Of a stretch of 64,000 nt of DNA, positions 4,614 to 62,137 are shown piece by piece. Position numbers and translations under genes: made by a program. The stretch covers positions 48,969-112,968 of the forward strand of contig CAINDP010000007.1 in NCBI GenBank assembly GCA_903847405.1, written 5' to 3'. A model generated the notes under the pieces. It ran no database searches, was not told the origin of the DNA, and saw nothing but the letters and a program-made list of their open reading frames with translations. The stretch comes from an uncultured Myxococcales bacterium (GTDB lineage: Bacteria; Myxococcota_A; UBA9042; DTJE01). Each line of letters begins with the position of its first letter. Position 1 is the first letter of the stretch.

Positions 4614-5037
4614 TCGACTGGGAGCCGCCGCTGGTGGCCGACGCCCAGGCGATGAGGCCGATGAGCGTGCCGGCCAGCGCGACGCCGCCGGCGATCCACA
4701 GGGCGGTCTTCCACGTGGACATGTGGTCGACTTCCGCGTTGTCCTTCAGGCTGTTCACGTCGAGGATGTAGTCACGGTCCGACGCGACCAGCTGCGATTC
4801 GGTCATCTTGAAGTTGAACGGCGTGATCGGATAGCGCTTGCCGCCCTGGGAGCGGACGAAGAGGCGCGTGTCCTCCTTGACCACGATGTCCTTGCCTTCG
4901 GTATCCTTCACGGTCGCCTGGCCGGCCTCCGGGACCTCCTGGAGGTTCCCCAGTTGCGAGCGCGGAACGGTGTACGTGTTGTAGCAACCAAGGCCGAACG
5001 TCGACACGACAAGAACGGCAGCAACCAAGCGCTTCAT
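4609..5037 (-). CDS. Small lipoprotein (142 aa), translationally coupled to the GT51 protein
   Basis: MKRLVAAVLVVSTFGLGCYNT has a signal peptide and lipobox. There is a C-terminal TM/hydrophobic segment. RBS GGAGGGGGG lies upstream of the ATG at 5037. Confidence 0.65.
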   Translation of the reverse strand: MKRLVAAVLVVSTFGLGCYNTYTVPRSQLGNLQEVPEAGQATVKDTEGKDIVVKEDTRLFVRSQGGKRYPITPFNFKMTESQLVASDRDYILDVNSLKDNAEVDHMSTWKTALWIAGGVALAGTLIGLIAWASATSGGSQSK

Positions 5038-5113
5038 CGAAGTCCCCCCTCCGTGCAGAACCAGAAGACCCGGGGCGGATCCTAGTCAACCTCCCCGGAA
5101 AAGAAAAGCCAAA

Positions 5114-8899: not shown

Positions 8900-9946
8900 C
8901 TACTTCTGGAGGATGTGGAATTCGACGCGCCGGTTCACGGCCCGCCCGGCCTCGGTGGAGTTGTCGTCGAGGGGGACTTCGTCACCCATGCCCGCCGCCT
9001 GCAGCCGATCGGGGCCGACCCCCTGGCCGACCAGGTACATCCGCACCGCGTCGGCCCGGGCCTGCGACAGCTTCTGGTTCACCTTCGGCTTTCCGACGGT
9101 GTCGGTGTGTCCCTCGATGCGGATCTTGAACTTCGGGTGATCCAGGATCGCCTGCGCGACCTCGTTCAGCAGTTCGAAGGACTCCTTCTTGATGGCGGCC
9201 TTGCCGGTCTGGAAGAAGACCTTCTGCTTCACCTGGATCTGGTCCTCGGTGATCGCGATCAGGGCGTACGGGCAACCGCTGTTCTCGACGGGTCCGGCCT
9301 CGGTCGGGCAGCGGTCCACGTCGTCGGAAACGCCGTCCTTGTCGCCGTCCTGGATCGGGCAGCCGCGGTTGATGCGGGGGCCGGGAACCGTCGGGCACGA
9401 GTCGTCGGGATCCATCACGCCGTCGGCGTCGGAGTCCTTGACCGGGCATCCGCGGTTGGCGGGTGTCCCCGGCGCGATCGGGCACTGGTCGTCGCCGTCC
9501 TTGACGCCGTCGCCGTCGTTGTCCGGATCCGGGCATCCGTCCTCGTCCTGGAACGAATCGAAGTCCTCGGCCAGGGTGGGGCACTTGTCGTCGCGATCGG
9601 GGATCCCGTCGCCGTCCGCGTCGGGCATGCAGATCGTGTCGCCCGAGCCCTTCCAGCCCTCGCGGACCGCGGCCTCGGCCTCCTCGATGGCGGCCTTGGC
9701 CGGGAACGGTCGTCCGCGGGAGGACTCGTGGCGGGCCCGGGCGATGGCCACCTCGGCCCGGGCCAGGGCCTTCGGAGCGCATGCGTAGAACTGGTCGTGG
9801 TGGTCGGCCATCAGGGCTTCCAGGGCCTTCGTCCGCTGCGCGATCTGGCTGTGACCGACGCAGGCGAGGGCCGACGGCAGCAGGACGACGGCGGCGGCGA
9901 ACACCGCGATGCGGGCGGGGCTCGGGAGGCGGATGGCCTGTTTCAT
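8900..9946 (-). CDS. OmpA-family lipoprotein with thrombospondin type-3 (Ca-binding) repeats
   Basis: Signal peptide and lipobox (MKQAIRLPSPARIAVFAAAVVLLPSALAC). Repeated DADGDGIPDRDDKCP / DNDGDGVKDGDDQCP / DSDADGVMDPDDSCP TSP3 units. C-terminal OmpA domain (NQKLSQARADAV...NRRVEF). ATG at 9946 with RBS GGGAGGAA. The ORF-track extension to 10348 was rejected. Confidence 0.85.
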   Translation of the reverse strand: MKQAIRLPSPARIAVFAAAVVLLPSALACVGHSQIAQRTKALEALMADHHDQFYACAPKALARAEVAIARARHESSRGRPFPAKAAIEEAEAAVREGWKGSGDTICMPDADGDGIPDRDDKCPTLAEDFDSFQDEDGCPDPDNDGDGVKDGDDQCPIAPGTPANRGCPVKDSDADGVMDPDDSCPTVPGPRINRGCPIQDGDKDGVSDDVDRCPTEAGPVENSGCPYALIAITEDQIQVKQKVFFQTGKAAIKKESFELLNEVAQAILDHPKFKIRIEGHTDTVGKPKVNQKLSQARADAVRMYLVGQGVGPDRLQAAGMGDEVPLDDNSTEAGRAVNRRVEFHILQK

Positions 9947-10323: not shown

Positions 10324-10399
10324 CCCCCGTCCCGTGCCCGTAGTTCAATACCAGCCGACCTCCGCGGTGTCAACGCGCCCCCCTTCCTCCCTCCCCACC

Positions 10400-10477
10400 G
10401 TGCACGTGGACGTGGACGTAGACGTCGACGTGGACGTGGACGTAGACGTGGACGTAGACGTGGACGTCGACGACTGC
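10400..10477. repeat. Imperfect hexanucleotide tandem repeat (GT[G/A/C][G/C]AC)x13, intergenic
   Basis: Read directly: gtgcac gtggac gtggac gtagac gtcgac gtggac gtggac gtagac gtggac gtagac gtggac gtcgac. It lies between the lipoprotein start (10323) and the metalloprotease stop (10541). A poly-C/G-rich tract precedes it (10378-10399, minus-strand GGGGAGGGAGGAAGGGGGG). Confidence 0.85.
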
Positions 10478-10540
10478 TTGATTCCCTGTCGGTGGTCTAC
10501 GGTGTGGTGTGTGCGTGTTCCCGATCCGCGCGGTGCAGCG

Positions 10541-21663: not shown

Positions 21664-21737
21664 TGGCGAAGGAGGGATTTGAACCCCCGACACGGCGGAT
21701 ATGAGCCGCCTGCTCTGACCAACTGAGCTACTTCGCC
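21664..21737 (-). tRNA. tRNA-Met (anticodon CAT), elongator-type
   Basis: The reverse complement folds as GGCGAAG-TA-GCTC-AGTTGGTC-AGAGC-A-GGCGG-CTCATAT-CCGCC-GTGTC-GGGGG-TTCAAAT-CCCTC-CTTCGCC-A, a cloverleaf with a G1:C72 pair. CCA is not encoded. tRNA-Ile2 (lysidine) cannot be excluded from sequence alone. Confidence 0.85.
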
Positions 21738-30880: not shown

Positions 30881-31942
30881 ATGCGGTCGATCGGTCGCCT
30901 GGTGCTCGCGTTGCCGGCCCTGTGCCTGGTGACGGCCGTTTCCTGCAGCGCGGGCAGCGCCGCGACGGACCTGCCGGGGGACCTGCCGACGGATGTCCCG
31001 GCCGATGTTCCCGGGGACCTGGCTCCCGACGTGCCTCCCGACGTCCCGGTGACGCCCGACCTCCCGCCGGAGGCCACTGCGGACGTGCCGCTGGACGTGC
31101 CGGCCGACGTGGCGCCCGACGCACCCGAACCGGTCCTCCCGGAATTCCTGGGCGGCGATCGTCCGGCGGCCCTGTACGTCCCGGACGACTACGTCGCGTC
31201 GCGGCCCTGGCCTCTCATCGTCCTTCTTCACGGGTACAGCGCCTCGGGCCTGACGGAGGCGGCCTACCTGGGTCTTCCCGAGCGGAGGACGTCGAAGGGG
31301 TTCGTGCTGCTGACGCCCGACGGGATGGTCGACTCGGAAGGCTACCAGTTCTGGAACGCCTTCGATTCGTGCTGCAATTTCGACAACCTGAACGTGGACG
31401 ACGTGGGGTACCTGCGAAAGTTGATTGCCGAGGCGGCTAGCGTTCTGAACATCGATCCGGGCCGGGTGTACCTGCTGGGCCATTCGAACGGCGGGTTCAT
31501 GTCGTTCCGGATGGCCTGCGACGCCTCGGACCTGATCGTAGGCATCGCGTCGATGGCAGGCTCGATCTCCACCAAGGCGGGCGATGCCGAATGCACGCCG
31601 GCGAAACCCGTGTCGGTCCTGGTGATCCACGGGACGGTCGACGACAGCATCGCGTACGGCGGCGAAACGGGAAACCGGCCCTACCTGGGTGCCGAGGCGC
31701 TACTGCAGTGGTGGAAGAACACGGATGAATGCACCCAGGGGCCGACGACGGGGGCCTCCCTGGACGTCGTCGACGATCTGGCGGGTGCGGAAACCACGAC
31801 GACCGGCTTCTCCGGTTGTTCCGCAGGCGCCCGCGTGGACCTGTGGACCATGCAGGGCGGCGGCCACATCCCGGTCCTGACCGAGGCCTTCAAGGACGCC
31901 GTGCTGGACCACCTGCTGTCGATGAGGCGAACCGCACCGTGA
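30881..31942 (+). CDS. Secreted lipoprotein esterase (alpha/beta hydrolase, PHB-depolymerase-like) with an acidic DxP-repeat linker
   Basis: Signal peptide and lipobox MRSIGRLVLALPALCLVTAVSCS. Linker DLPGDLPTDVPADVPGDLAPDVPPDVPVTPDLPPE. Nucleophile elbow LLGHSNGGFM. Confidence 0.75.
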   Translation: MRSIGRLVLALPALCLVTAVSCSAGSAATDLPGDLPTDVPADVPGDLAPDVPPDVPVTPDLPPEATADVPLDVPADVAPDAPEPVLPEFLGGDRPAALYVPDDYVASRPWPLIVLLHGYSASGLTEAAYLGLPERRTSKGFVLLTPDGMVDSEGYQFWNAFDSCCNFDNLNVDDVGYLRKLIAEAASVLNIDPGRVYLLGHSNGGFMSFRMACDASDLIVGIASMAGSISTKAGDAECTPAKPVSVLVIHGTVDDSIAYGGETGNRPYLGAEALLQWWKNTDECTQGPTTGASLDVVDDLAGAETTTTGFSGCSAGARVDLWTMQGGGHIPVLTEAFKDAVLDHLLSMRRTAP

Positions 31943-31943
31943 T

Positions 31944-32027
31944 GAGCCGCCCGAGCACGCAGGCGCAGGCGATGGGATTGCGCAGCAATCTCTCGCCGGA
32001 GCCGGAGTCGACTCGGGCTATTCAATG
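31944..32027. repeat. Intergenic ~84-bp hairpin repeat element, copy A (REP/MITE-like family)
   Basis: gagccgCCCGAGcacgcaggcgcaggcgatgggattgcgcagcaatctctcgccggagccggagtcgaCTCGGGctattcaatg. The ends are inverted (CCCGAG...CTCGGG) with an internal stem GGATTGC/GCAATC. Confidence 0.85.
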
Positions 32028-32111
32028 GAGCCGCCCGAGCACGCAGGCGCAGGCGATGGGATTGCGCAGCAATCTCTCGCCGGAGCCGGAGTCGACTCGG
32101 GCTGTTCAATG
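32028..32111. repeat. Intergenic ~84-bp hairpin repeat element, copy B (tandem with A; 1 mismatch)
   Basis: Identical to copy A except one base (ctattcaatg vs ctgttcaatg). It ends 1 nt before the ATG of the downstream dioxygenase gene. Confidence 0.85.
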
Positions 32112-32112
32112 G

Positions 32113-33042
32113 ATGAACCGCCGCCGGTTCCTGCGACACGGGGTGGCGCTGCTGGGGGCGGCGGCCGGTGTGCCGCTGCTGGCCTGCTCCCGTCCCGCCG
32201 ACCGTCCGGCGAACCCTGCGCAAGGAGGCCCCGGGATGTCCGAACCGACTTCTGCATCCCCGGCCGCGCGCATGCCCGTCCTGTTCGTCGGGCACGGTTC
32301 GCCGATGAACGCCATCGCCGACAACCGGTTCAGCCGCGCCTTCCAGGCCCTGGGAAAGGCTGTGCCGCGCCCCCGGGCGATCCTGTCCGTTTCGGCGCAC
32401 TGGTTCGTCCCGGGGACGTTCCTGACCGACAACCTGCGCCCGCCGACGATCCACGACTTCGGCGGTTTCCCACAGTCTCTGTTCGACATGCAGTATCCCG
32501 CACCGGGGGACCCGGACCTGGCGCGGCGCGTGGTGGCACTGCTGGGAGCGGCGACCGCGTCGCTTCGCGGGGACTGGGGCCTGGACCATGGGACCTGGAC
32601 GGTGCTGCACCACGCCTTCCCCGGGGCCGACGTGCCGGTCGTCCAGTTGAGCATCGACTCCCGCCTGCCGCCTTCGGGTCACCTGCTGCTGGGCCAGGCC
32701 CTGGCGCCACTGCGCGACGAAGGCGTCCTGATCCTGGGCAGCGGAAACATCACGCACAACCTGGCCCATGTCTTCAGCCAGGGCTTCCGGGACGACGCGC
32801 CAACTCCCGACTGGGCGGACGCCTTCGACGCCGACGTGGCGCGGGCCTGCGAACGGCACGACGGCGCGCACCTGGCCCGGGCGATCGACCTGGAAGACGG
32901 ACGCATGTCCCATCCCACGCCGGACCACTACCTGCCACTGCTGTACGTGGCGGGTGCCGCCGCGCCGGGGGACGCCGTGACGTTCCCGATCACCGGGTTC
33001 GACCTGGGTTCCCTGTCGATGCGGGCCGTTCGTTTCGGTTGA
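32113..33042 (+). CDS. DODA-type extradiol ring-cleavage dioxygenase (YgiD family) with a Tat signal peptide
   Basis: MNRRRFLRHGVALLGAAAGVPLLA is a twin-arginine motif. The mature domain begins MPVLFVGHGSPMNA...SAHWF... (class III extradiol dioxygenase). Confidence 0.75.
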   Translation: MNRRRFLRHGVALLGAAAGVPLLACSRPADRPANPAQGGPGMSEPTSASPAARMPVLFVGHGSPMNAIADNRFSRAFQALGKAVPRPRAILSVSAHWFVPGTFLTDNLRPPTIHDFGGFPQSLFDMQYPAPGDPDLARRVVALLGAATASLRGDWGLDHGTWTVLHHAFPGADVPVVQLSIDSRLPPSGHLLLGQALAPLRDEGVLILGSGNITHNLAHVFSQGFRDDAPTPDWADAFDADVARACERHDGAHLARAIDLEDGRMSHPTPDHYLPLLYVAGAAAPGDAVTFPITGFDLGSLSMRAVRFG

Positions 33043-33912: not shown

Positions 33913-34538
33913 GGTTCCCATTCCTCCTCGAAGAGGGCCTTCAGGCCGGCCAGGTGATACCGGGAGAATCCCGCCACCGCCTGGCGAATCCGGGACTCGT
34001 CGCCGTAGCGGACCAGGATGTCCACGATCGTGTCCACGAGGTGTCGATAGATCCGGGTCAGCGCGAACCGGGTCGTGGGGGGGACCTCCAGATCCGGCTG
34101 CAGCCCCTGGAAATGCGCGATGGCCCGGTCCGCCAGATCGCGCACCAGGGCGTCCGCGAATCCCTCGTGCCGCGTGCCCTGGGACCGCCCCAGCAGCACG
34201 ACGACGCGCAGTCGGTTGCGGATGCAGAACGCCAGCAATTCCTCGGACAGTGCGTGGAACGGCGCGTCCGCCGGCAGGGTGCGAATGTCGTCGACCCCGT
34301 CCAGGGACTGGACCCGACGGTGCAGCCGCAGACCCAGTTCCTCGACGAAAGCGTCGGGGATCACGGCCTGGTAGAGGTCCTTCTTGCCGCCGTGATACCG
34401 GTACAGGTTGCCGGAGGAAACCCCGGCCGCATCGGCGATGTCGGCCATCGACGACGCCCGGTAGCCGTTCCGGGCCAGGACCTTCAGCGCGCCGGCAGCG
34501 ATGCGGTCGCGGACCTCGTCCTTCTGGTACTGGGCCAC
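33909..34538 (-). CDS. TetR-family transcriptional regulator
   Basis: GTG at 34538 (VAQYQKDEVRDRIAAGALKVLARNGYRASSMADIADAAGVSSGNLYRYH, HTH). The ORF-track extension to 35267 was rejected. Confidence 0.75.
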   Translation of the reverse strand: MAQYQKDEVRDRIAAGALKVLARNGYRASSMADIADAAGVSSGNLYRYHGGKKDLYQAVIPDAFVEELGLRLHRRVQSLDGVDDIRTLPADAPFHALSEELLAFCIRNRLRVVVLLGRSQGTRHEGFADALVRDLADRAIAHFQGLQPDLEVPPTTRFALTRIYRHLVDTIVDILVRYGDESRIRQAVAGFSRYHLAGLKALFEEEWEP

Positions 34539-37113: not shown

Positions 37114-38118
37114 TCAAGGCGTCATCATCCGCGTCCAGTCCAGGGCCTTGCGCCACGTGCAGTTCGCGCACTGTGCCACGGGCAGGGCGTTGGGCCCCTC
37201 GGACCGGGGCCCGCCAGGACACGCGAACAGGATGCGGGCGGGCTTCCGGCTGGAGTCGAGGAGGAAGCCGGCCAGTTCCTCGGCGAACCGCGCCGGGTGC
37301 AGGAGGTGGGGGAAATGCCCCCCGCCCGGAAAGACCGACAGGGTCGCCCCGTGGAACCGCTGCAGCGCCATCCGGCCGTGGCTGACCGGGATCACGCGAT
37401 CGTCATCGCCCCAGAACAGCGCGACCTGCGGCAGGGACTCGGCCGCGGCGACCTCGCGACAGGTCTGCATGTACTGGCCGAACACGTCGATGACCCCGCG
37501 AACGGTCCGGGCGAAGGACATCCCGCTGCCCGGCAGGCTGTTCATCCGCACGATTTCCTCGATCTCCACGGGCTCCGGATTGCCGAAGTTGTGCAGATCG
37601 CCCTTCATGGCCATGCGGGTGCCGATCCCCATCGCCGCGGGCGTGTACAGCACCTCCAGGTACCGGATGGCGGCCAGGCGCAGGCCCAGCATGACCTCGC
37701 GACCCAGGCCGCCCGCGGCCACCAGCGCCATCCGATCCACCCGCGGACGGTGGGTCAGCACCATCCACTGGGCGATGCCGCCTCCGTAGGAATGTCCGCA
37801 GAAATGTGCCTGGGCCAGCCCGATGGCATCCATCCACTGGTCCAGGATGTCCGTGAACCAGCCCAGCGTGTACGGGGCGTCGGGACGTCCGGACTCGCCG
37901 AACCCCGGCAGATCGGGAATCAGGACGCGGAACCGCCGGGCCAGAAGGGGGGCGGTGCGCCGCCAGGTGCGGCCCGAGTCGCCGATTCCGTGCAACAGGA
38001 TCAGGGGCTCGCCCGAACCCGTTTCGGCCCACGCGACCTCGGTTCCGTCCACGGTCGTCCGGTGGCGGGTGCCCAGGGGCGGGAGGCCGATCCTGCCGAC
38101 GTCGCCGGTCCCTTGCAT
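37114..38118 (-). CDS. Alpha/beta-fold hydrolase
   Basis: ATG at 38118 (MQGTGDVGRIG...). HGIGDSG, nucleophile elbow GHSYGGGIA, C-terminal His. The ORF-track extension to 38217 runs through repeat copy C and was rejected. Confidence 0.8.
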   Translation of the reverse strand: MQGTGDVGRIGLPPLGTRHRTTVDGTEVAWAETGSGEPLILLHGIGDSGRTWRRTAPLLARRFRVLIPDLPGFGESGRPDAPYTLGWFTDILDQWMDAIGLAQAHFCGHSYGGGIAQWMVLTHRPRVDRMALVAAGGLGREVMLGLRLAAIRYLEVLYTPAAMGIGTRMAMKGDLHNFGNPEPVEIEEIVRMNSLPGSGMSFARTVRGVIDVFGQYMQTCREVAAAESLPQVALFWGDDDRVIPVSHGRMALQRFHGATLSVFPGGGHFPHLLHPARFAEELAGFLLDSSRKPARILFACPGGPRSEGPNALPVAQCANCTWRKALDWTRMMTP

Positions 38119-38134
38119 GGACTCACCTGCCGAT

Positions 38135-38218
38135 GTTCCTCCCGAGCGCGCAGGCGCAGGCGATGGGTTTCCGCAGGAAACTCTCGCCGAAGACGAAGTC
38201 GCCTCGGGCCTTTCCACT
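38135..38218. repeat. Intergenic ~84-bp hairpin repeat element, copy C (variant subfamily)
   Basis: ctCCCGAGcgcgcaggcgcaggcgatgggtttccgcaggaaactctcgccgaagacgaagtcgcCTCGGGcctttccactg. The inner stem is GGTTTCC/GGAAAC, i.e. compensatory double substitutions relative to copies A/B/D. Confidence 0.85.
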
Positions 38219-38309: not shown

Positions 38310-39356
38310 TCACTTCACGAGGGGTACGCGGACGATGGGACCGGGGCGGACGATGAGGTGGTCGAGGCCCGCGAAGGTCTCGCCGTCGATGACGGGGTCC
38401 AGGACCTCGCCGTCCCGCGCGCGGACCTCCAGGGACTCGCCCGGGAACTCGTGCCACGTGCCGCCGGGGATCGGCCGGCCCGCGACCAGCCAGATCCACT
38501 TCCAGGAGGCCTCGCTGGGGGTCAGTGCACCCGCGACCAGGTGCAGCTTGCCCGGGAGGCCCGCGAACGGGAACAGCTTCATCGTGCCGAAGTCGACGTC
38601 CACGGAGCCGACGTGCAGGCCCTGGTAGGATTCGTACGGCAGGACCTTTCCGTCCGCCACGACGTGTGCGCGGGTGCCGGACATCATGTCCCGGCTGTGG
38701 TCCTTCCACCGTTCCATCCAGGGGAAGCCGTGATACGGAACGAAGGACATCAGGTGCCCGGTCCCCACCTTGACCGCGATCTGGATGATGGTCCAGGGGT
38801 TCGGGTTTGCGGCCTCGTAGTATTTTTCGAAGAACTTCTGCCCGATGCCGCCGACGGCGGTGGCGAATCCCAGGCGGCGGAAGCCCATCGAGCCTTCCGG
38901 ATCCCCCACCCGGTGGCCGACGACCTCCAGCGTGGGCAGGTCGGCGGTCGTGAAGGCGCGGCCGGACCGGACCCCGTCCACGAGGATGCGGATGATCCGG
39001 CTGGAACTGCTGCGGATCCCGGCCTTGCGGGCGACGAAGTCGATGGTGCCGCCGTTGGCCGGAACCAGGAAGTAGGGGAACGGGGAACGGCGATCCCAGA
39101 CTCCGCGATCCTCGAGGACCGAGGCGCCCTCGTTGACCAGGCAGTTCAACGTTCCGTCGCCGCCGTCGGCGACCCAGTACCTGCAGCCGGCATCGATGAA
39201 TTCCTCCACCACGCCGCGGATTTCGCCCAGGCTGCCGGTGGCCCGCACCAGGACGTCCCCGCCCAGCGCCGCACTCAGTCGCTGGACGCGGCCGGTGCCT
39301 GCGCGGTTCCGTCGGGACTTCAGGTTGGTGATGATCCCGATGCTTGCCGCCACCAT
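38310..39356 (-). CDS. Diacylglycerol-kinase-catalytic-domain (DAGK_cat/YegS-like) lipid kinase family protein
   Basis: 348 aa with ...WVADGGDGTLNCLVN... (GGDGT motif). Confidence 0.7.
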   Translation of the reverse strand: MVAASIGIITNLKSRRNRAGTGRVQRLSAALGGDVLVRATGSLGEIRGVVEEFIDAGCRYWVADGGDGTLNCLVNEGASVLEDRGVWDRRSPFPYFLVPANGGTIDFVARKAGIRSSSSRIIRILVDGVRSGRAFTTADLPTLEVVGHRVGDPEGSMGFRRLGFATAVGGIGQKFFEKYYEAANPNPWTIIQIAVKVGTGHLMSFVPYHGFPWMERWKDHSRDMMSGTRAHVVADGKVLPYESYQGLHVGSVDVDFGTMKLFPFAGLPGKLHLVAGALTPSEASWKWIWLVAGRPIPGGTWHEFPGESLEVRARDGEVLDPVIDGETFAGLDHLIVRPGPIVRVPLVK

Positions 39357-44935: not shown

Positions 44936-45019
44936 GAGCCGCCCGAGCACGCAGGCGCAGGCGAGCGGATTGCGCAGCAATCTCTCGCCGAAGACGAAGT
45001 CGCCTCGGGCCTTTCCACT
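44936..45019. repeat. Intergenic ~84-bp hairpin repeat element, copy D (in the divergent promoter region)
   Basis: gagccgCCCGAGcacgcaggcgcaggcgagcggattgcgcagcaatctctcgccgaagacgaagtcgcCTCGGGcctttccactg. The 5' half resembles copies A/B and the 3' half resembles copy C. Confidence 0.85.
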
Positions 45020-45111
45020 GGACGCGTACCGGGGCGTTCCGGCGTTGGCGCGATGTCCCAGGGGGCTGGGCGCGGCGCCGGGGTTCAGATCCCTTCATGT
45101 CGAAGGAAACC

Positions 45112-47760
45112 ATGGAATTCCAGCGAATTCTGGCACTGAAGGGACCCAATCTCTGGTCGCGGCGCACCTGCCTGGAAGCCTGGGTGGACATCGGTCCGCT
45201 GCAGGATTCGCCGTCGAACCTGCTGCCCGGCCTGTACGAGCGTCTGTCCGCCTGGCTGCCGGGCCTGATCGAGCACCGGTGCGGCGTCGGGGAGCGGGGC
45301 GGCTTCCTGATGCGCCTGCGCGACGGGACCTACGCCGCCCACATGCTGGAACACGTGGCCATCGAACTGCAGAACCTGGCGGGCACGCCGGTCGGGTTCG
45401 GCAAGGCCCGGGAAACCTCGCGGCCCGGCCTGTACAAGGTCGCCATCCGGTACCGCAACGAAACAGTGGCGCGGGCCTGTCTGGATGCGGGACGGGACCT
45501 GCTGCTGGCGGCCATCCACGACCATCCGTACGACGTGGCCGACACCGTCGCCCGGCTGCGGGACGTGGCCGACGGCGCCTGCCTGGGCCCCAGCACGGCG
45601 GCCATCGTCGATGCGGCCGAGGCGCGGGGCATCCCGACGCACCGCCTGACCGACGCCAGCCTGGTCCAGTTGGGCCAGGGCGCCCGGCAGCACCGGATCT
45701 GGACGGCCGAAACCGATCGCACCGGCGCGATCGGCGAGTGGATCGCCTCGGACAAGGACATGACCAAGCGCCTGCTGCAGGCGTGCGGCGTGCCGATCCC
45801 CGAGGGCCGCCTGGTGGACGGCGCGGAAGACGCCTGGGTGGCCGCGCAGTCGGTGGGGCTGCCCGTCGTCGTCAAGCCCCGGGACGCCAACCACGGGCGG
45901 GGCGTCTTCACGGACCTGTCGTCCCGCGAGGAAATCGAAAACGCCTACGCCGTCGCGGTGAACGAGGGCAGCGGGGTGATCGTCGAGCGCTTCGTCCGCG
46001 GCAACGAGCACCGCCTGCTGGTCGTCGGCCACAGCATGGTGGCGGCCGCCCGGGGCGAAACCGCGTGGGTCGTCGGGGACGGGCGCTCCACGGTGCGGGA
46101 CCTGGTGACCTCGCAGATCGATTCGGATCCGCGACGCGGGTTGGGCGAGGACTTCCCCCTGAACTTCATCGAACTGGACGACCCGGTGGTGATGCTGGAC
46201 ATGCGGCGCCAGGGGTATTCGGCCGATTCGGTGCCTGCCGACGGCGCCCGGGTGATGGTCCAGCGCAACGGGAACGTGGCGTTCGACGTCACGGACATCG
46301 TGCATCCCCGCGTCGCCGCCAGCGTGGTCCTGGCGGCCCGGGTGGTCGGCCTGGACGTGGCCGGCATCGACATCGTCGCCGAGGACATCACGCGTCCGCT
46401 GGAAGAGCAGGGCGGTGCCGTGGTCGAGGTCAACGCGGGCCCCGGCCTGTCGATGCACCTCAAGCCCGCCGCCGGGACCCCCCGGCCGGTCGGGGAAGCG
46501 ATCGTGGACAGCCTGTTCGCCCCCGGCGAATCGGGCCGGATCCCCCTGGTCTGCGTGACCGGCACCAGCGGCAAGACCGTGGTGACGCGCCTGGTCGCCC
46601 ACCTGCTGCGGGCTGACGGGCGCCACGTGGGCCTGGCGTGCAGCGACGGCCTGTACCTGGATTCCCGGGTGATCGAAACGTGCGATCGCGCGGACGCCCC
46701 GGGCGCACGCAAGGCGCTGATGAACCCCTCCGTCGACGCGGCGGTGCTGGAGGCGGGCGGCCCCAGCATCCTGCGCGAGGGCCTGGGCTTCGACCGGTGC
46801 GACGTGGCGGTAGTGACCAACATCGGGCAGGGCGATCACCTGGGGCTGCACGACATCCAGTCGCCCGACGCCCTGTACTCGGTGAAGCGTTGCGCGGTGG
46901 ACGTGGTGCTGCCGACGGGGACCGCCGTGCTGAATGCCGCCGACCCCCTGGTGGCGGAAATGGCGTCCCTGTCCGCCGGCGCGGTGATCTTCTTCGCGCT
47001 GGACGCGGGCCACCCGATCCTGGGGGCCCATCGGGCTGCGGGCGGGCGTGCCGTGACGGTCCGCGACGGTCGCGTGGTCCTGGCCGAGGGGGACGTGGAA
47101 ACGCCCATCGCGGACGTTTCCGCCTTGCCGTTGGCCCACGGGGGGCGCGTTCCGTTCCAGGTCGAAAACGTGCTGGCGGCGGCGGCGGCGGGCTGGGCGC
47201 TGGGCCTGTCTCCCGCGGCGCTGGGCGCGGGTGTCCTGTCGTTCGACCGCGATGGCCGCGAACTCCCCGGCCGCTTCACCTGCATGGAACATGACGGGGC
47301 GACCGTCGTGATCGACGCGGTCCGCAACCCGGTGTCCGGCGGGGCCCTGGCGACGGCCCTGGATCACTTCCCCGCCAGGCGCAGGACCCTCGTCTGTGTC
47401 CCGGGGATCCTGCGGCGCGACGCCGATCTGGAGGACCTGGGCCGGATCCTGGGCGCCGCCTTCGATCGCATCGTCTTCTGCGGTTCGGAACCGGCGTCGC
47501 AGGAGGAGGACGCCGCTGCGGCAACAAGAATTGTCGATGCCTTGCAACCTTCCACCGGGTCGCTCCGTACACCCCTTCGACGCGGGGCCTTATCGGGCGG
47601 ACGGGCGGTTGAAATCGTGCAGGTTCCGGGGCATCACGAGGCCGTCGAGGCCGCCCTGGACACGCTGGAGGTCGGCGATCTGCTGGTCCTCCAGGCCGAC
47701 GAATATCATCCCGGGTCCACCGTCGATCAGGTCCGCGAATGGATGGTACGGCACGCCTAG
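45112..47760 (+). CDS. cphA: Cyanophycin synthetase
   Basis: ATG at 45112 with RBS GAAGGAAA. N-domain (LKGPNLWSRRT, TRETSRPGLYKV). ATP-grasp (LGPSTAAIV, VVVKPRDANHGRGV, IVERFVRGNEHRLLVV, VEVNAGPGLSMH). Mur-ligase domain (VTGTSGKTVVTRL, GDHLGL). Confidence 0.9.
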   Translation: MEFQRILALKGPNLWSRRTCLEAWVDIGPLQDSPSNLLPGLYERLSAWLPGLIEHRCGVGERGGFLMRLRDGTYAAHMLEHVAIELQNLAGTPVGFGKARETSRPGLYKVAIRYRNETVARACLDAGRDLLLAAIHDHPYDVADTVARLRDVADGACLGPSTAAIVDAAEARGIPTHRLTDASLVQLGQGARQHRIWTAETDRTGAIGEWIASDKDMTKRLLQACGVPIPEGRLVDGAEDAWVAAQSVGLPVVVKPRDANHGRGVFTDLSSREEIENAYAVAVNEGSGVIVERFVRGNEHRLLVVGHSMVAAARGETAWVVGDGRSTVRDLVTSQIDSDPRRGLGEDFPLNFIELDDPVVMLDMRRQGYSADSVPADGARVMVQRNGNVAFDVTDIVHPRVAASVVLAARVVGLDVAGIDIVAEDITRPLEEQGGAVVEVNAGPGLSMHLKPAAGTPRPVGEAIVDSLFAPGESGRIPLVCVTGTSGKTVVTRLVAHLLRADGRHVGLACSDGLYLDSRVIETCDRADAPGARKALMNPSVDAAVLEAGGPSILREGLGFDRCDVAVVTNIGQGDHLGLHDIQSPDALYSVKRCAVDVVLPTGTAVLNAADPLVAEMASLSAGAVIFFALDAGHPILGAHRAAGGRAVTVRDGRVVLAEGDVETPIADVSALPLAHGGRVPFQVENVLAAAAAGWALGLSPAALGAGVLSFDRDGRELPGRFTCMEHDGATVVIDAVRNPVSGGALATALDHFPARRRTLVCVPGILRRDADLEDLGRILGAAFDRIVFCGSEPASQEEDAAAATRIVDALQPSTGSLRTPLRRGALSGGRAVEIVQVPGHHEAVEAALDTLEVGDLLVLQADEYHPGSTVDQVREWMVRHA

Positions 47761-47811
47761 GCGTGTCGCGTGTGTTCGACGCCGATCGTGGCTGGACAGG
47801 GAAAGCCCCCG

Positions 47812-50433
47812 ATGGAAGTCACCCGCATCCGAGCCCTCCGCGGCCCGAACCTGTGGTCGCGCCGGACGGTCCTGGAAGCCATCGTTTCACTGACGGACGA
47901 ACAGCGCCAGATCCTGGCGCGGCCGGGGTTCGAGGAGCGCCTGCGCGAGCGGATGCCCAGCCTGGGCCGTCTGCCTCCCACGGGCGAACCCGGCGCGTTC
48001 AGCCTGGCCCACGTCCTGGAAAGGGTCGCCCTGGGGCTGCAGGCCCAGGCCGGGTGCCCCGTCTTCTTCAGTCGGACCGCGATGACGGTCGAGGAAGGCG
48101 TCTACCAGGTCGTGGTCGAATACGCGGTCGAGGAGGTCGGGCGGCTGGCGCTGGACCAGGCGCAGACCCTCTGCGACGCCGCGCTGGACGGACAGCCCTA
48201 CGACGTCGTCGACGCCCTGCTGCGACTGCGGGCCCTGGACGAGGAGATCCGCCTGGGGCCGTCGACGGGATCGATCGTCCGTGCGGCCCTGTCCCGCGGG
48301 ATTCCCATCCGCCGCCTGAACGAAGGCAGCCTGGTGCAGTTCGGCTGGGGCGTGAAGCAGCACCGGATCCTGGCGGCCGAAACGGACCACACCAGCGCCA
48401 TCGCCGAATCGATCGCCCAGGACAAGGAACTGACCAAGATGCTGCTGGAGGCGGCCGGCGTGCCGGTGCCCCGGGGGCGTCCCGTGACCGATGCCGAGGA
48501 CGCCTGGGAGGCCGCGCAGGAAGTCGGCCTGCCCGTGGTCGTCAAGCCGCGCAACGGCAGCCAGGGACGCGGCGTCGCCGTGAACCTGACCACCCGCGAG
48601 GCGGTCGCCGCCGCATACGTCGCGGCCGAGCAGGTCACCAGCGAGGTCCTCGTCGAGCGGTTCATGCCGGGCCGGGACTTCCGCCTGCTGGTGATCGGCG
48701 GACGCCTGGTCGCAGCGGCCCGTCGCGAGCCCCCTGAGGTTGTCGGGGACGGCGAGCGGACCATCCGCCAGTTGGTGGACGAAGTGAACGCCGATCCGCG
48801 GCGCAGCGACGGCCATGCGACGTCGTTGACCCGGATCCCGCTGGACGCGATCGGCCTGGCCGTCCTGGCCGAACAGAACTGCACTCCGGAAACGGTTCCC
48901 GCCCACGGCGTGCGCGTCCTGCTGCGCGGCAACGCGAACCTCAGCACCGGCGGGACGGCGACGGACGTCACCGACCAGGTCCATCCGGACGTGGCGGCCG
49001 GGGCCGTGGATGCGGCCAAGGTCATCGGCCTGGACATCTGTGGCGTGGACGTCATCTGCCAGGACATCTCCCGTCCCCTGCAGGAGCAGTCCGGCGGCGT
49101 CGTGGAAGTCAACGCGGCTCCGGGGTTCCGCATGCACCTGGATCCTTCCTACGGGAAGGGCCGGCCGGTGGGCGAGGCGGTCGTGTCCACGATGTTTGCC
49201 GAGGGCGACGACGGCCGCATCCCGCTGGTGGCCGTATCCGGCACCAACGGCAAGACGACCACGGTCCGCCTGGTTTCGCACCTGCTGAAGGCCCGGGGCC
49301 AGTGCGTGGGCATGACCTGTTCCGACGGGATCTACGTGGACGCACGGCGCATCGACGACGGGGACTGCAGCGGTCCCAAGAGCGCCCGGGCGATCCTGCT
49401 GCACCCGGACGTCGAGGCGGCCGTGTTCGAAACCGCACGGGGCGGGATCCTGCGCGAGGGCCTCGCCTTCGACAAGTGCGACGTGGCCGTGGTCACGAAC
49501 GTCGGGACCGGCGATCACCTCGGGCTGTCGTTCATCACGACGGTCGATGATCTGGCGGTCATCAAGCGCGTGATCGTCGAAAACGTGGCGCCCACGGGCG
49601 TCGCGGTTCTGAACGCGGCCGATCCCCTGGTGGCGCCCATGGCCGAGGCGTGCCCGGGGACGGTGACGTTCTTCGCCCCGAACGCGGACAACGCGGTCCT
49701 CGCCGCGCATCGCAGTGCCGGTGGACGCGTGGTGTTCGTGGACGGTTCCGACATCGTCGCCGTCGAGGGCGCGACCGAGGAGCGCATCGCCCTGGCGTCC
49801 ATCCCGATCACCCGCGACGGGTGCGTGCGCTTCCAGGTCGAAAACGCGATGGCCTCCATCGGGGCCGCCTGGGCGTTGAAGGTCGACTGGGCCACCATCC
49901 GCACCGGGCTGGGGACCTTCGTCAACGACATCCAGACCGCGCCCGGGCGCTTCAACATCCTGGACTACAGGGCCGCGATGGTGATCGCGGACTACGGCCA
50001 CAATCCGGACGCCATCCTTGCCCTGGTGGACGCGGTCGAGCGCATGCCGTCCCGGCGCCGCATCGCGGTGATCAGCGCCGCCGGCGATCGCCGGGACGTG
50101 GACATCCGGCGCCAGACCGAAATCCTGGGCGAGGCCTTCGACGAAATCATCCTGTACCAGGACGCCTGCCAGCGCGGCCGCGAGGACGGCGAGGTCGTGG
50201 CGCTGCTGCGCGAAGGCCTCAGCCATGCGCATCGCGTGTCGGAGGTGTCCGAGATCCGGGGCGAGTTCCTGGCCATCGAAACGGCCCTGGGCCGCCTGGC
50301 TCCGGGCGACCTGGCCTTGATCCTGATCGATCAGATCGAGGAGTCCCTGGCGCTGCTGGAACGTGCGATCCAGGGTGCGCCGCTGCGCGCCGAAGAGGGC
50401 GCGGCCGGGAACCTGGAAGCCGCGTGCGGATGA
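47812..50433 (+). CDS. cphA: Second cyanophycin synthetase paralog (cphA'-type)
   Basis: ATG at 47812 (MEVTRIRALRGPNLWSRRT). VVVKPRNGSQGRGV, DPRRSDGH, VEVNAAPGFRMH, VSGTNGKTTTVRL, GDHLGL. It starts 52 bp after the first cphA. Confidence 0.9.
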   Translation: MEVTRIRALRGPNLWSRRTVLEAIVSLTDEQRQILARPGFEERLRERMPSLGRLPPTGEPGAFSLAHVLERVALGLQAQAGCPVFFSRTAMTVEEGVYQVVVEYAVEEVGRLALDQAQTLCDAALDGQPYDVVDALLRLRALDEEIRLGPSTGSIVRAALSRGIPIRRLNEGSLVQFGWGVKQHRILAAETDHTSAIAESIAQDKELTKMLLEAAGVPVPRGRPVTDAEDAWEAAQEVGLPVVVKPRNGSQGRGVAVNLTTREAVAAAYVAAEQVTSEVLVERFMPGRDFRLLVIGGRLVAAARREPPEVVGDGERTIRQLVDEVNADPRRSDGHATSLTRIPLDAIGLAVLAEQNCTPETVPAHGVRVLLRGNANLSTGGTATDVTDQVHPDVAAGAVDAAKVIGLDICGVDVICQDISRPLQEQSGGVVEVNAAPGFRMHLDPSYGKGRPVGEAVVSTMFAEGDDGRIPLVAVSGTNGKTTTVRLVSHLLKARGQCVGMTCSDGIYVDARRIDDGDCSGPKSARAILLHPDVEAAVFETARGGILREGLAFDKCDVAVVTNVGTGDHLGLSFITTVDDLAVIKRVIVENVAPTGVAVLNAADPLVAPMAEACPGTVTFFAPNADNAVLAAHRSAGGRVVFVDGSDIVAVEGATEERIALASIPITRDGCVRFQVENAMASIGAAWALKVDWATIRTGLGTFVNDIQTAPGRFNILDYRAAMVIADYGHNPDAILALVDAVERMPSRRRIAVISAAGDRRDVDIRRQTEILGEAFDEIILYQDACQRGREDGEVVALLREGLSHAHRVSEVSEIRGEFLAIETALGRLAPGDLALILIDQIEESLALLERAIQGAPLRAEEGAAGNLEAACG

Positions 50434-60742: not shown

Positions 60743-62137
60743 ATGGAACGTGATCCCTTGCTGCGAGCCCAGGAGGCTGCCCCGTCCCGGAAGCCCGCCG
60801 AGGCGGACCAGGGGGCTTCCCGCGGCAACGCGATGCGCAAATCCCTGCTGGGACTGTCCTACGACGAGCAGCGGGCGCGGCTGTCCCCCTCCTCGGCGGA
60901 AAGCGGCGCCCAGGAGTCGATCGTTTCGGTGATCTCGCCCGGTGCGGGACCCAACATGACCAATGCCGCCGACACGCTGCCGTCCACGAAAGCGCCCCCG
61001 GCCGGCGGGGCTGCGCCTGCAGGGACCGGCACCCTGGGTTCCGGGGCCCGGCCCATGCTGCGCACGGGGTCCAGCGGTGATTCCGTCATCGAACTGCAGA
61101 GCCTGCTGAACCACACGGACGAGGTGAACCAGAGCCTGCACGTGGACGGGCAGTTCGGTCCCCTGACCCTGAACGCCGTGCGGCAGTTCCAGGCGGCGCA
61201 CCCACCCCTGGTCGTGGACGGCGTGGTCGGTCCCCTGACCTGGGGGGCCCTGGACGGCACCCCGGGCGAGGCCCAGGCGCCCGAACCGGTCGCGAAGAAA
61301 CTGTACGAACGCGGCACCGACGCCTACGAGAAGGGCGATTTCGCCCATGCGTACGACCTGTTCACCAGCGCCGACGAACACGTCCACCTGCCGGCCCTCA
61401 CCTTCGATCGGGCGCAGTCCCTGCGGCGCCTGGGCGCCCGGTCCGAGGAGGCCATCGCCCTGTACGAGCAGTATGTCGCCGAGGGCGGCGCCCGGTCTGC
61501 CGAAGCCGCGGGCTACATCGTGGAACTGAAGGGCCCGGGGAAATCGGGCGACGAGGCGGCGGACGCCCACGGGGCCCGGGCCCTCTGGGACAAGGGGCGC
61601 ACGCTGTACGAGGCCGGCGACTATTCACACGCCTACGAGGAGTTCACCAAGGCCGACCAGGTGGAGCATCGGGCGGCCCTCACGTTCGATCGCGCCCAGG
61701 CCCTGAAGAAGATGGGCGGCCGGAGGGAGGAGGCGATCGCCCTGTACGATCAGTACATCGCCGAGGGAACAGGGTCGCGACTCCACGACGCGATCAACAG
61801 CGTCGCCGAGATGCGCGGACCCTCCAAGACCGGCGTGGAAGAGGTGGATGCGGCTGCGGCGAAGGACCTGTACCGGCGCGGGTCGGCGCTGTACGACGCC
61901 GGCGACTATGCCCACGCCTTTGACGAGTTCACCAAGTCCGACAACGTCGCGCACCGCGTGGCCAGCACCTTCAACCGCGCCCAGGCGCTGCGGATGCTGG
62001 GCGGCCGGCGCGACGAGGCCATCGCGCTGTACGAGGCCTATCTGGCCGAGGGCGGCGGGACCCGGGAAGGCGAGGCGCGATTCTACCGGGACGAACTGCG
62101 GACCCAGGGGGCGTCGGCCCCGCCGAAAGCGGTGTGA
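60743..62137 (+). CDS. Peptidoglycan-binding (PG_binding_1) protein with three TPR-like repeats
   Basis: GDSVIELQSLLN...DGQFGPLTLNAVRQFQAAH...DGVVGPLTWGAL (PGBD). Three ~75-aa repeats of LYERGTDAYEKGDFAHAYDLFT...LTFDRAQSLRRLG..EEAIALYEQYVAEGG. The start is 60743 (RBS GGGAG, 9 nt) or 60734. Confidence 0.65.
   Translation: MERDPLLRAQEAAPSRKPAEADQGASRGNAMRKSLLGLSYDEQRARLSPSSAESGAQESIVSVISPGAGPNMTNAADTLPSTKAPPAGGAAPAGTGTLGSGARPMLRTGSSGDSVIELQSLLNHTDEVNQSLHVDGQFGPLTLNAVRQFQAAHPPLVVDGVVGPLTWGALDGTPGEAQAPEPVAKKLYERGTDAYEKGDFAHAYDLFTSADEHVHLPALTFDRAQSLRRLGARSEEAIALYEQYVAEGGARSAEAAGYIVELKGPGKSGDEAADAHGARALWDKGRTLYEAGDYSHAYEEFTKADQVEHRAALTFDRAQALKKMGGRREEAIALYDQYIAEGTGSRLHDAINSVAEMRGPSKTGVEEVDAAAAKDLYRRGSALYDAGDYAHAFDEFTKSDNVAHRVASTFNRAQALRMLGGRRDEAIALYEAYLAEGGGTREGEARFYRDELRTQGASAPPKAV

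Follow-up and report, generated by a model that had tools for sequence, protein, structure and literature searches.

Copy C of a short repeat in an uncultured Myxococcales genome differs from its three sister copies at two base pairs of a hairpin stem, each flipped on both arms so that pairing is retained. This raises the question of whether the hairpin is selected and, if so, at which level the selection acts. We addressed this question starting from the 64,000-nucleotide stretch of DNA that contains the four copies (hereafter the window) and then in the wider family to which they belong. The original prediction, which had been made from the letters of the window, held that the paired changes in copy C support a selected hairpin. 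Interspersed hairpin repeats have been well studied in gamma-proteobacteria and in a few pathogens, and in the literature that we searched we found no such repeat described in Myxococcota; a search for myxobacterial REP or MITE elements returned nothing relevant. An 87-bp repeat was reportedly described in Myxococcus xanthus in 1991.

Four copies of one repeat family in the window

A repeat search of the 64-kb window, which has a GC content of about 70%, recovered a single family with four direct copies of 84 nt, each of them on the + strand (Table 1). For a 41-nt piece of the repeat, zero matches were expected in shuffled sequence, and the four-copy pattern is far beyond chance. Alignment of the copies with MAFFT confirmed the inner stems that had been described, GATTGC-GCA-GCAATC in A, B and D and GTTTCC-GCA-GGAAAC in C, with both changed pairs flipped and complementarity kept (A–T to T–A at columns 28/40 and G–C to C–G at columns 31/37). 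It likewise confirmed that the 3′ half, CTCTCGCCGAAGACGAAGTCGCCTCGGGCCTTTCCACTG, is identical in C and D, whereas A and B instead have GGAGCCGGAGTCGACTCGGGCT(A/G)TTCAATG. We set the unit boundaries from the leader and tail profile and took the core scores from cmsearch. A covariance model scored the four cores at 87–95 bits on the + strand (E of about 1e-16 to 1e-18), compared with 17–25 bits for the same cores on the reverse strand, and its search of the 64-kb window found no further significant copy beside A–D. One additional match, at 34422–34474 (E = 0.08), lies inside coding sequence and is unrelated to the repeat.

The 170 nt that separate the stop of an esterase-like gene (31942) from the ATG (32113) of a Tat-signal LigB-type dioxygenase (Pfam LigB) are taken up entirely by units A and B: unit A starts 4 nt past the esterase stop codon (TGA, 31940–31942), and the tail of unit B stops 2 nt before the dioxygenase ATG. 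Copy C was correctly placed between two minus-strand genes, an alpha/beta-hydrolase (37114–38118) and a 348-aa ORF (38310–39356) whose stop codon, on the minus strand, is at 38310 beside the copy. Its distance upstream of the hydrolase had been given as 13 nt and needs correcting, as the hydrolase ATG (38118–38116) is 16 nt from the first nucleotide of copy C and 22 nt from the core. The copy would indeed be read antisense on the hydrolase transcript, and unit C is antisense to both of its neighbours. Unit D is 78–93 nt upstream of the first of two cyanophycin-synthetase paralogues (ATG 45097 or 45112). The genes beside A/B, C and D have unrelated functions.

Table 1 Repeat copies, units and related sites in the window
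Feature	Position	Strand	Details
Copy A	31944–32027	+	Repeat search
Copy B	32028–32111	+	In tandem with A, 1 nt different, period 84 nt
Copy C	38135–38218	+	Repeat search
Copy D	44936–45019	+	Repeat search
Unit A	31946–32026	+	Leader 31946–31949, 68-nt hairpin core 31950–32017, tail 32018–32026; 94.5 bits
Unit B	32030–32110	+	Core 32034–32101; 94.5 bits
Unit C	38137–38217	+	Core 38141–38208; majority type II inner stem; 92 bits
Unit D	44938–45018	+	Core 44942–45009; type I inner stem with the 3′ arm and tail of C (mosaic); 87.1 bits
Inner hairpin of unit C	38165–38183	+	GGGTTTCC-GCA-GGAAACTC; core columns 25–43; from fold
Unoccupied orthologous site	5036–5091		Junction near 5058–5065; blastn, alignment and flank projection

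A lineage-specific family of about 100 copies

The hydrolase protein beside copy C was found on several lake-metagenome contigs that share 99.9% identity with the window. When one genome per species was scanned with a 5′-arm pattern that left the inner hairpin free, 36 stretches matched. Twenty-three of these were real, all of them in one metagenome-assembled genome (MAG), uncultured Myxococcales bacterium MJ-time_bin-5834, where many lie at contig ends; in the other genomes of the scan only the searched pattern matched, and there was no real repeat. Because this MAG is about 82–85% identical to the window where the two are syntenic, the window represents a related species. A metagenome scan with an independent 3′-arm pattern added 71 further loci, and nhmmer over all collected loci brought the family to about 120 units with 90 distinct 68-nt cores. 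Essentially all of these come from a single Myxococcales MAG and a small number of metagenomes. As the 5′ pattern is present in only 31% of the 3′-ascertained units, the 25–30 matches to this pattern imply that the assembled part of the MAG holds about 80–100 units. The density in the window is 4 units per 64 kb, and we estimate that genomes of this uncultured Myxococcota lineage each carry of the order of 100 copies.

We found no true match among the viral contigs and plasmids searched, and a phage or plasmid origin was rejected on this ground. At the Rfam gathering threshold, the sole match in the 64-kb window was a tRNA (21664–21737), and a permissive Rfam scan of the A/B region returned only chance matches of about 15 bits; a known Rfam RNA family was thus discarded at both thresholds.

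Anatomy of the unit

Conservation of the flanks around the 68-nt core is limited to positions −4 (YCCG) through +9 (CCSATCCAA), which gives a unit of about 81 nt, in agreement with the tandem periods. Each unit consists of the 4-nt leader YCCG, a 68-nt imperfect hairpin and the asymmetric 9-nt tail CCSATCCAA, and units occur singly or in tandem arrays of two or three with periods of 81–85 nt. The outer stem, CCCGAGC/GNCTCGGG, pairs columns 1–9 with 58–68 and has two bulges on the 3′ side; it forms an inverted repeat of 6–9 bp, the sole terminal inverted repeat of the unit. In the middle of the hairpin, the isolated pairs 13–54 and 15–52 are part of a stretch in which Watson–Crick pairs alternate with A·G/G·A juxtapositions. 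Pairs 11–56 and 14–53 of a hand-drawn helix were dropped, as they are unpaired in 50 and 31 of 70 cores, respectively. Above this stretch are a lower stem, GGCGA/TCGCC (columns 19–23 with 44–48), a fixed one-base bulge at column 24 and an inner stem of 8 bp (columns 25–32 with 36–43) that includes a fixed G26·U42 wobble. The apical loop has three bases, G-N-A in most copies. The inner hairpin of unit C conforms to this plan: it has 8 pairs, one of them the conserved wobble, and C–G closes its G-N-A triloop. The C(GNA)G triloop is known as an unusually stable DNA mini-hairpin. The inner stem found in copy C (type II) is the majority type, present in 53 of the 70 cores.

Some variation in length was also observed. 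A six-member subfamily carries an insertion of 15 nt in the 5′ arm, and the inserted sequence forms a small hairpin of its own, GGCGGC-CGA-GCCGCC (loci L074 448, L099 1555, L086 2330, L057 3368, L069 2978 and L087 1273). Across the tandem arrays, periods of 81 nt (9 cases) and 84 nt (7 cases) are more frequent than periods of 82, 83 and 85 nt (6 in total). Multiples of three are thus over-represented, with some redundancy among the loci counted. An intrinsic terminator was considered and rejected, given that the tail CCSATCCAA has no T-run and copies are depleted in convergent spacers.

Compensatory change maintains the hairpin on one strand

We assessed covariation in 70 distinct gapless cores, which had been collected with retrieval patterns that left the inner stem and columns 8 and 59 unconstrained. 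Standard pairing was present in 92.4% of cells, compared with 32–49% when the partners were slid by 1–3 columns, and none of 500 column shuffles reached the observed covariation score. Clean double-sided exchange was found at three pairs: 8–59 (G–C in 41 cores, A–U in 28, G–U in 1 and none unpaired), 28–40 (U–A in 53, A–U in 16, U–G in 1 and none unpaired) and 31–37 (C–G in 45, G–C in 17, U–G in 2 and 6 unpaired). The only recurrent breakage of the stem was a small GTTTGT...GGAAAC subfamily (6 of 70 cores). Rarer exchanges were U–A to C–G at pair 30–38 in two cores with different stem backgrounds, and a C–G replacement at pair 29–39 in one core. When no structure was supplied, RNAalifold drew the same long hairpin with 23 pairs, 6 of them with double-sided compensation, and the highest normalised mutual information fell on the base pairs 28–40 (1.0) and 8–59 (0.91). 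The proposal of a selected hairpin is therefore supported by the covariation of 28–40, 31–37 and 8–59 and by RNAalifold; across the 70 cores we did not see the substitutions occurring independently with pairing not preserved.

Mismatches indicate which strand folds. In the supported helices, G·U occurred about 101 times and A·C twice (32 versus 2 without the fixed 26–42 wobble, G26·U42 being present in 69 of 70 cores), and this asymmetry identifies the folding strand as CCCGAG...CTCGGG-tail, the + strand of the window. The hairpin is kept by compensatory change on this one strand, and the family offers a clean natural covariation data set, in which a 68-nt hairpin combines three fully exchanged pairs with a 100-to-2 wobble asymmetry. 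Folding energies were less uniform. As RNA, A and B fold very stably (−44 and −48 kcal/mol, z of −4 to −5), whereas the RNA folds of C and D are unexceptional relative to GC-matched shuffles (z of −1.7 and −1.5), as are their DNA folds (z of −1.2 and −0.8). As C and D have unexceptional energies, the structural evidence is the covariation of the family and not the stability of single copies. Between orthologous copies of different strains, 9 of 12 substitutions fell at the 22 unpaired positions and 3 at paired positions, a small and partly redundant sample that hints at some constraint in place.

One explanation for covariation does without structural selection. Arm-to-arm mismatch correction or template switching in a snap-back palindrome would leave complementary changes as an artefact of copying or repair, and a few master copies would then spread these haplotypes, so that covariation would reflect descent. 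The two inner-stem changes are nearly fully linked (normalised mutual information of 0.90 between columns 28 and 37), hence very few events are represented, and identical cores at separate loci, together with the mosaic of C and D, show gene conversion or recent copying at work. Several observations nevertheless make this explanation improbable. Column 8 is coupled to its partner at 0.91, whereas its coupling to the stem columns is only about 0.5 and to other variable columns does not exceed 0.5; the A–U pair at 8–59 occurs with both stem types, and in none of the 70 cores is this pair broken. The C–G replacements at 30–38, in two backgrounds, and at 29–39 are independent. Correction of one arm by the other should also erase the non-complementary A·G/G·A positions and the bulge, which persist, and the 100-to-2 excess of G·U over A·C is predicted by selection for folding.

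The flips seen in copy C can be placed in this history. Their compensated nature was correctly recognised, but they are not an event in C itself, which carries the majority type; given the tight linkage of 28–40 and 31–37, the flip represents one old subfamily split. The flips mark two old subfamilies, with one or two ancient compensated events and several rarer independent ones. That there are at least two subfamilies with recombination between them, as had been proposed, is supported by modules that form mosaics and by the presence of A–U at 8/59 in combination with both stem types.

A different kind of constraint would come from a protein-binding site in duplex DNA, such as a palindromic operator or a site for a nucleoid protein or gyrase, as proposed for BIMEs. 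Such a site would suit a palindromic element that lies near promoters and starts and is depleted in convergent spacers, and the type I stem region has a sigma-54-like GGC-N8-TTGC spacing. However, stem bases change while complementarity stays, the opposite of sequence-specific recognition of a duplex; the majority type II has no TTGC; and a strand asymmetry of wobbles is meaningless for duplex DNA. This explanation is already disfavoured, and we give it very little credence. The sigma-54 spacing itself, that of the −24/−12 elements, was observed in AGGCGATGGGATTGCG at 31967–31982 and 44959–44974, both in type I units. A sigma-54 promoter was rejected as the conserved function of the family, because the majority type II lacks the TTGC of GGC-N8-TTGC.

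Orientation and genomic setting

We next consider how the units are oriented relative to genes, whose strands were called from codon-position GC. After normalisation to the folding strand, arrays between co-directional genes were sense in 30 cases and antisense in 17, and a further 15 arrays lay in divergent and 3 in convergent spacers, so convergent spacers are depleted of copies (3 of 65). Many copies occupy tight spacers, with 5–25 nt from stop to core and 7–30 nt from core to start, and some unit tails run directly into AAGGAG-ATG; antisense copies sit as tightly in their spacers as sense copies. Folding energy did not differ between sense (−35.2 kcal/mol) and antisense (−35.4 kcal/mol) copies (p = 0.94). 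Relative to local GC skew, the element strand showed a weak bias (33 to 19, p = 0.07, short loci); copies A–D are all on the G-rich strand, and in a manual tally neighbouring arrays on one contig had the same orientation in about 10 of 13 cases. Hairpins at 2–30 nt from start codons likely affect the expression of many genes, including the hydrolase beside C.

The main rival to selection for propagation is an RNA-level role in operon transcripts. The hairpin, lying within operons and 5′ leaders, would act there as an exonuclease barrier, processing site, stabiliser or translation modulator, and selection on RNA function at each site would keep the stem. Roles at the mRNA level have been reported for REP/BIME, ERIC and Correia elements. 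Consistent with such a role, the wobble pattern is confined to one strand, G26·U42 and the bulge at column 24 are fixed, A and B form very stable RNA folds, many copies occupy operon spacers next to start codons, convergent spacers are depleted (3 of 65) with a mild excess of sense copies (30 to 17), and substitutions between orthologous copies fall mostly at unpaired positions. By contrast, more than one-third of the co-directional copies, including C, are antisense and are equally well paired, and on antisense transcripts the G·U pairs turn into A·C mismatches. Furthermore, the neighbouring genes have no common function, no Rfam family matches, and presence and copy number vary among close relatives, which is not expected of a required regulatory element. 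We therefore regard host-level RNA function as unlikely, if still a serious competitor. The term 'selected' in the original prediction had left the level of selection unstated; because sense and antisense copies are equally well paired, selection at the level of element propagation fits better than a function in mRNA at each site.

The A/B locus suggests yet another possibility, a translated, MIRU-like repeat. In this case the 28-codon units A and B would form an N-terminal extension or a small coupling ORF, with a SRPSTQAQAMGLRSNLSPEPESTRAIQW peptide as the product. The esterase stop overlaps an ATG (TGATG, 31940–31944), from which the reading stays in frame through both units into the dioxygenase, the frame being open from 31942; on another contig, a gene caller ran the LigB ORF through one unit, giving 338 aa; and array periods of 81 and 84 nt dominate. 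However, at a GC content of 70% the sequence is open in all three + frames, so an open frame is no evidence of translation. Periods of 82, 83 and 85 nt are found in other arrays, copies occur in both orientations (17 co-directional antisense) and also far from ORFs, the dioxygenase has its own Tat-type N terminus, MNRRRFL, directly after unit B, and the variation tracks base-pairing and not codon structure. A coding repeat was rejected on the basis of the three open frames in GC-rich DNA and the periods that are not multiples of three, and we consider it the least credible of the alternatives weighed here. The other contig, LRLL39An, was compared with 31942–33042 of the window, and its 338-aa LigB ORF was called from the ATG that overlaps the esterase stop. 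This ORF is 28 codons shorter than the two-unit reading of the window, indicating that the number of units at the LigB locus varies between assemblies. The repeat can thus mislead gene callers in the choice of start codons, as in the dioxygenase ORF extended through a unit.

Turnover of units and arrays

Occupancy and unit number differ between related genomes. The related MAG has one unit (L021, 3114–3190; also L044) at a site that is empty in the window (Table 1), and this filled/empty pair shows at most a diverged, ambiguous repeat of about 10 nt. Loci L099 and L084, whose flanks are 97–98% identical, differ by exactly one period, and the difference is bounded by two direct copies of the 3′ arm plus tail, of which the 'empty' allele keeps one; this is a unit-register deletion. 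At another site, L031 has two units and L065 has three. Units are near-identical within an array, arrays differ among themselves, and identical 68-nt cores occur at separate loci of one MAG. As tandem arrays vary between strains, they could serve as typing markers.

A direct repeat on the 5′ side was present in only 9 of 85 arrays, and thus no fixed-length target-site duplication was found. A long target-site duplication, which L021, L013, L025 and L030 had suggested, was rejected, the repeats in these 9 of 85 arrays being partial or internally deleted units. At the filled/empty pairs, neither a conserved cleavage motif nor a regular target-site duplication was established. We also observed internally deleted units, at L060 (about 4990–5040, − strand) and L047 (upstream of 1676), in which CCCGAGCGCG is joined directly to GAGACGGAGCCGACTCGGG and the whole central hairpin is missing, as expected from palindrome-mediated deletion.

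Copies C and D, 6.8 kb apart, have a common haplotype of 3′ arm and tail and differ in their inner stems and in pair 8–59. This haplotype was noticed in no other listed core when these were read by eye, and the mosaic fits local gene conversion or template switching. Several metagenome contigs switch genomic context inside the repeat (L042 versus L007, 2829–2908, and L030, 3811–3889; L002, 1–50; L001, 6526–6700). In contig L042, for example, an identical 68-nt core connects the left flank of one MAG site with the right flank of a second site. At least some of these contigs are probably assembly chimeras, and others may reflect real recombination. The repeat breaks and chimerises metagenome assemblies of the lineage.

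A proposed REPIN-like mode of propagation

REPINs are REP doublets mobilised by RAYT/TnpA-REP tyrosine transposases; they form long hairpins with frequent compensatory changes, occur in tandem clusters that include the flanks and have an asymmetric single-stranded tail (Bertels and Rainey 2011, PMC3116915). The present repeat resembles them in many respects. Its unit falls in the same size range (about 70–110 nt) and is one long imperfect hairpin in single-stranded DNA or RNA; compensatory stem changes are common; copies are extragenic, lineage-specific and number about 1e2–1e3; and near-identical units, flanks included, form tandem clusters with an asymmetric single-stranded tail and with singlet or partial remnants. 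Unlike in REPINs, the arms are not short palindromes and pair only at alternate positions in the middle, where A·G/G·A juxtapositions are regularly spaced, and there are in addition the fixed G·U and the G-N-A triloop. The 5′ side lacks a GTAG-like tetranucleotide and has the leader YCCG followed by CCCGAG, no RAYT gene was found among the ORFs near copies, and the host belongs to the Myxococcota, whereas the classical cases are in Gammaproteobacteria. A GTAG-like tetranucleotide lies at the 5′ foot of REP hairpins, and RAYT is a single-copy Y1 HUH transposase gene that is typically flanked by the repeats. Because no RAYT was found in the roughly 790 kb screened and short palindromic REPs and the GTAG foot are absent, we do not file the repeat as a REPIN and propose only that it works like one.

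Other known elements share fewer of these features. Hairpin-type MITEs, such as Correia/NEMIS in Neisseria, ERIC/IRU in enterobacteria and RUP/BOX in pneumococcus, are co-transcribed with genes as long mRNA hairpins and can alter the expression of neighbours. The repeat is similarly a non-autonomous palindromic element of about 100 nt close to genes. Hairpin-type MITEs have long terminal inverted repeats, defined target-site duplications (TA for Correia) and links to IS families, whereas the repeat has only the 6–9 bp outer stem and no regular duplication was found. MIRUs, the mycobacterial interspersed repetitive units reportedly described by Supply et al. in 1997, are matched by the tandem units of 50–100 nt that fill intercistronic gaps of operons and vary in number between strains and, at A/B, by the upstream stop that overlaps a start codon and the units in frame. 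What defines MIRUs is a small ORF that runs in the direction of the operon, and they do not form long hairpins; by contrast, the repeat occurs in both orientations, with periods beyond multiples of three and variation ruled by base-pairing. PATEs and other elements derived from IS200–IS605 ends carry strand-specific single-stranded DNA hairpins for a Y1 HUH transposase, are linked to the lagging-strand template and insert with no target duplication. The repeat shares the strand-specific hairpin. In PATEs, each end, left and right, has its own distinct subterminal hairpin, and the target is a conserved tetra- or pentanucleotide, whereas the repeat has one long hairpin and a weak GC-skew orientation bias.

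Taken together, we consider it moderately probable that copy C is a member of a lineage-specific, non-autonomous REPIN/MITE-like repeat whose hairpin is needed for its own propagation. A unit would have to fold as a single strand to be copied, and the hairpin would be kept for that purpose, presumably because a trans-acting enzyme recognises it, as for REPINs and IS200/IS605-derived elements. Copies that lose the fold would stop propagating, so that the population would look 'selected' wherever a copy lands. Each of the two inner-stem types would go back to its own compensated master copy, mosaics such as C/D may have arisen by gene conversion between neighbouring copies, and effects of a strong hairpin 2–30 nt from start codons on neighbouring genes would probably be by-products. 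Copying through a single strand would explain the equal structure in both orientations, the unrelated neighbours and the occupancy that differs between relatives. The C(GNA)G triloop, as a stable DNA motif, leans towards single-strand copying; as a counterpoint, fixed features such as the G·U wobble and the bulge are also characteristic of functional RNAs.

To look for a candidate enzyme, we divided about 790 kb of sequence surrounding some 100 sites into 3920 ORF fragments and screened these by phmmer with approximate sequences of IS608 TnpA, IS200 TnpA and an E. coli RAYT. All matches had E > 1; with approximate queries, the absence of a RAYT is a weak negative. There is a small chance that the family instead propagates by a mechanism undescribed for bacterial repeats, or that it constitutes some 100 dispersed functional structured RNAs that set the expression of many operons. 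In the former case, a non-RAYT enzyme or a reverse-transcription route might recognise the single-stranded hairpin by its fixed G·U, bulge, regularly spaced A·G/G·A and C(GNA)G triloop; myxobacteria are rich in retrons. The repeat is a new family of a known kind and not a new kind of system or principle. It could help to distinguish whether the form of such repeats reflects their own replication or their use by the host.

Other repeated sequences in the window

The window contains further repeats of other kinds. Downstream of unit D are two adjacent cyanophycin-synthetase paralogues of 887 aa each (45097–47757 and 47770–50430, + strand), with a Cyanophycin_syn N-domain, an ATP-grasp domain and a Mur-ligase domain, and this pair explains the direct repeats D2, D5 and D8 with their spacing of 2.67 kb. 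At about 9300–9630 (− strand), repeats with a period of 87 nt lie in an ORF and encode Asp-rich, thrombospondin-type-3-like calcium-binding motifs (DxDxDGxxDxxDxCP). A 12-nt tandem repeat of about 7 CGTGGACGTAGA-like copies at 10399–10482 would read (VD)n on the + strand or (ST)n on the − strand. Finally, one ORF at 61320–62060 (+ strand) contains three repeats of about 94 aa that by eye are possibly TPR-like (GDYxHAYxxFTKAD...ALTFDRAQAL...EEAIALY), and these account for repeat D1 with its spacing of 282–285 nt.
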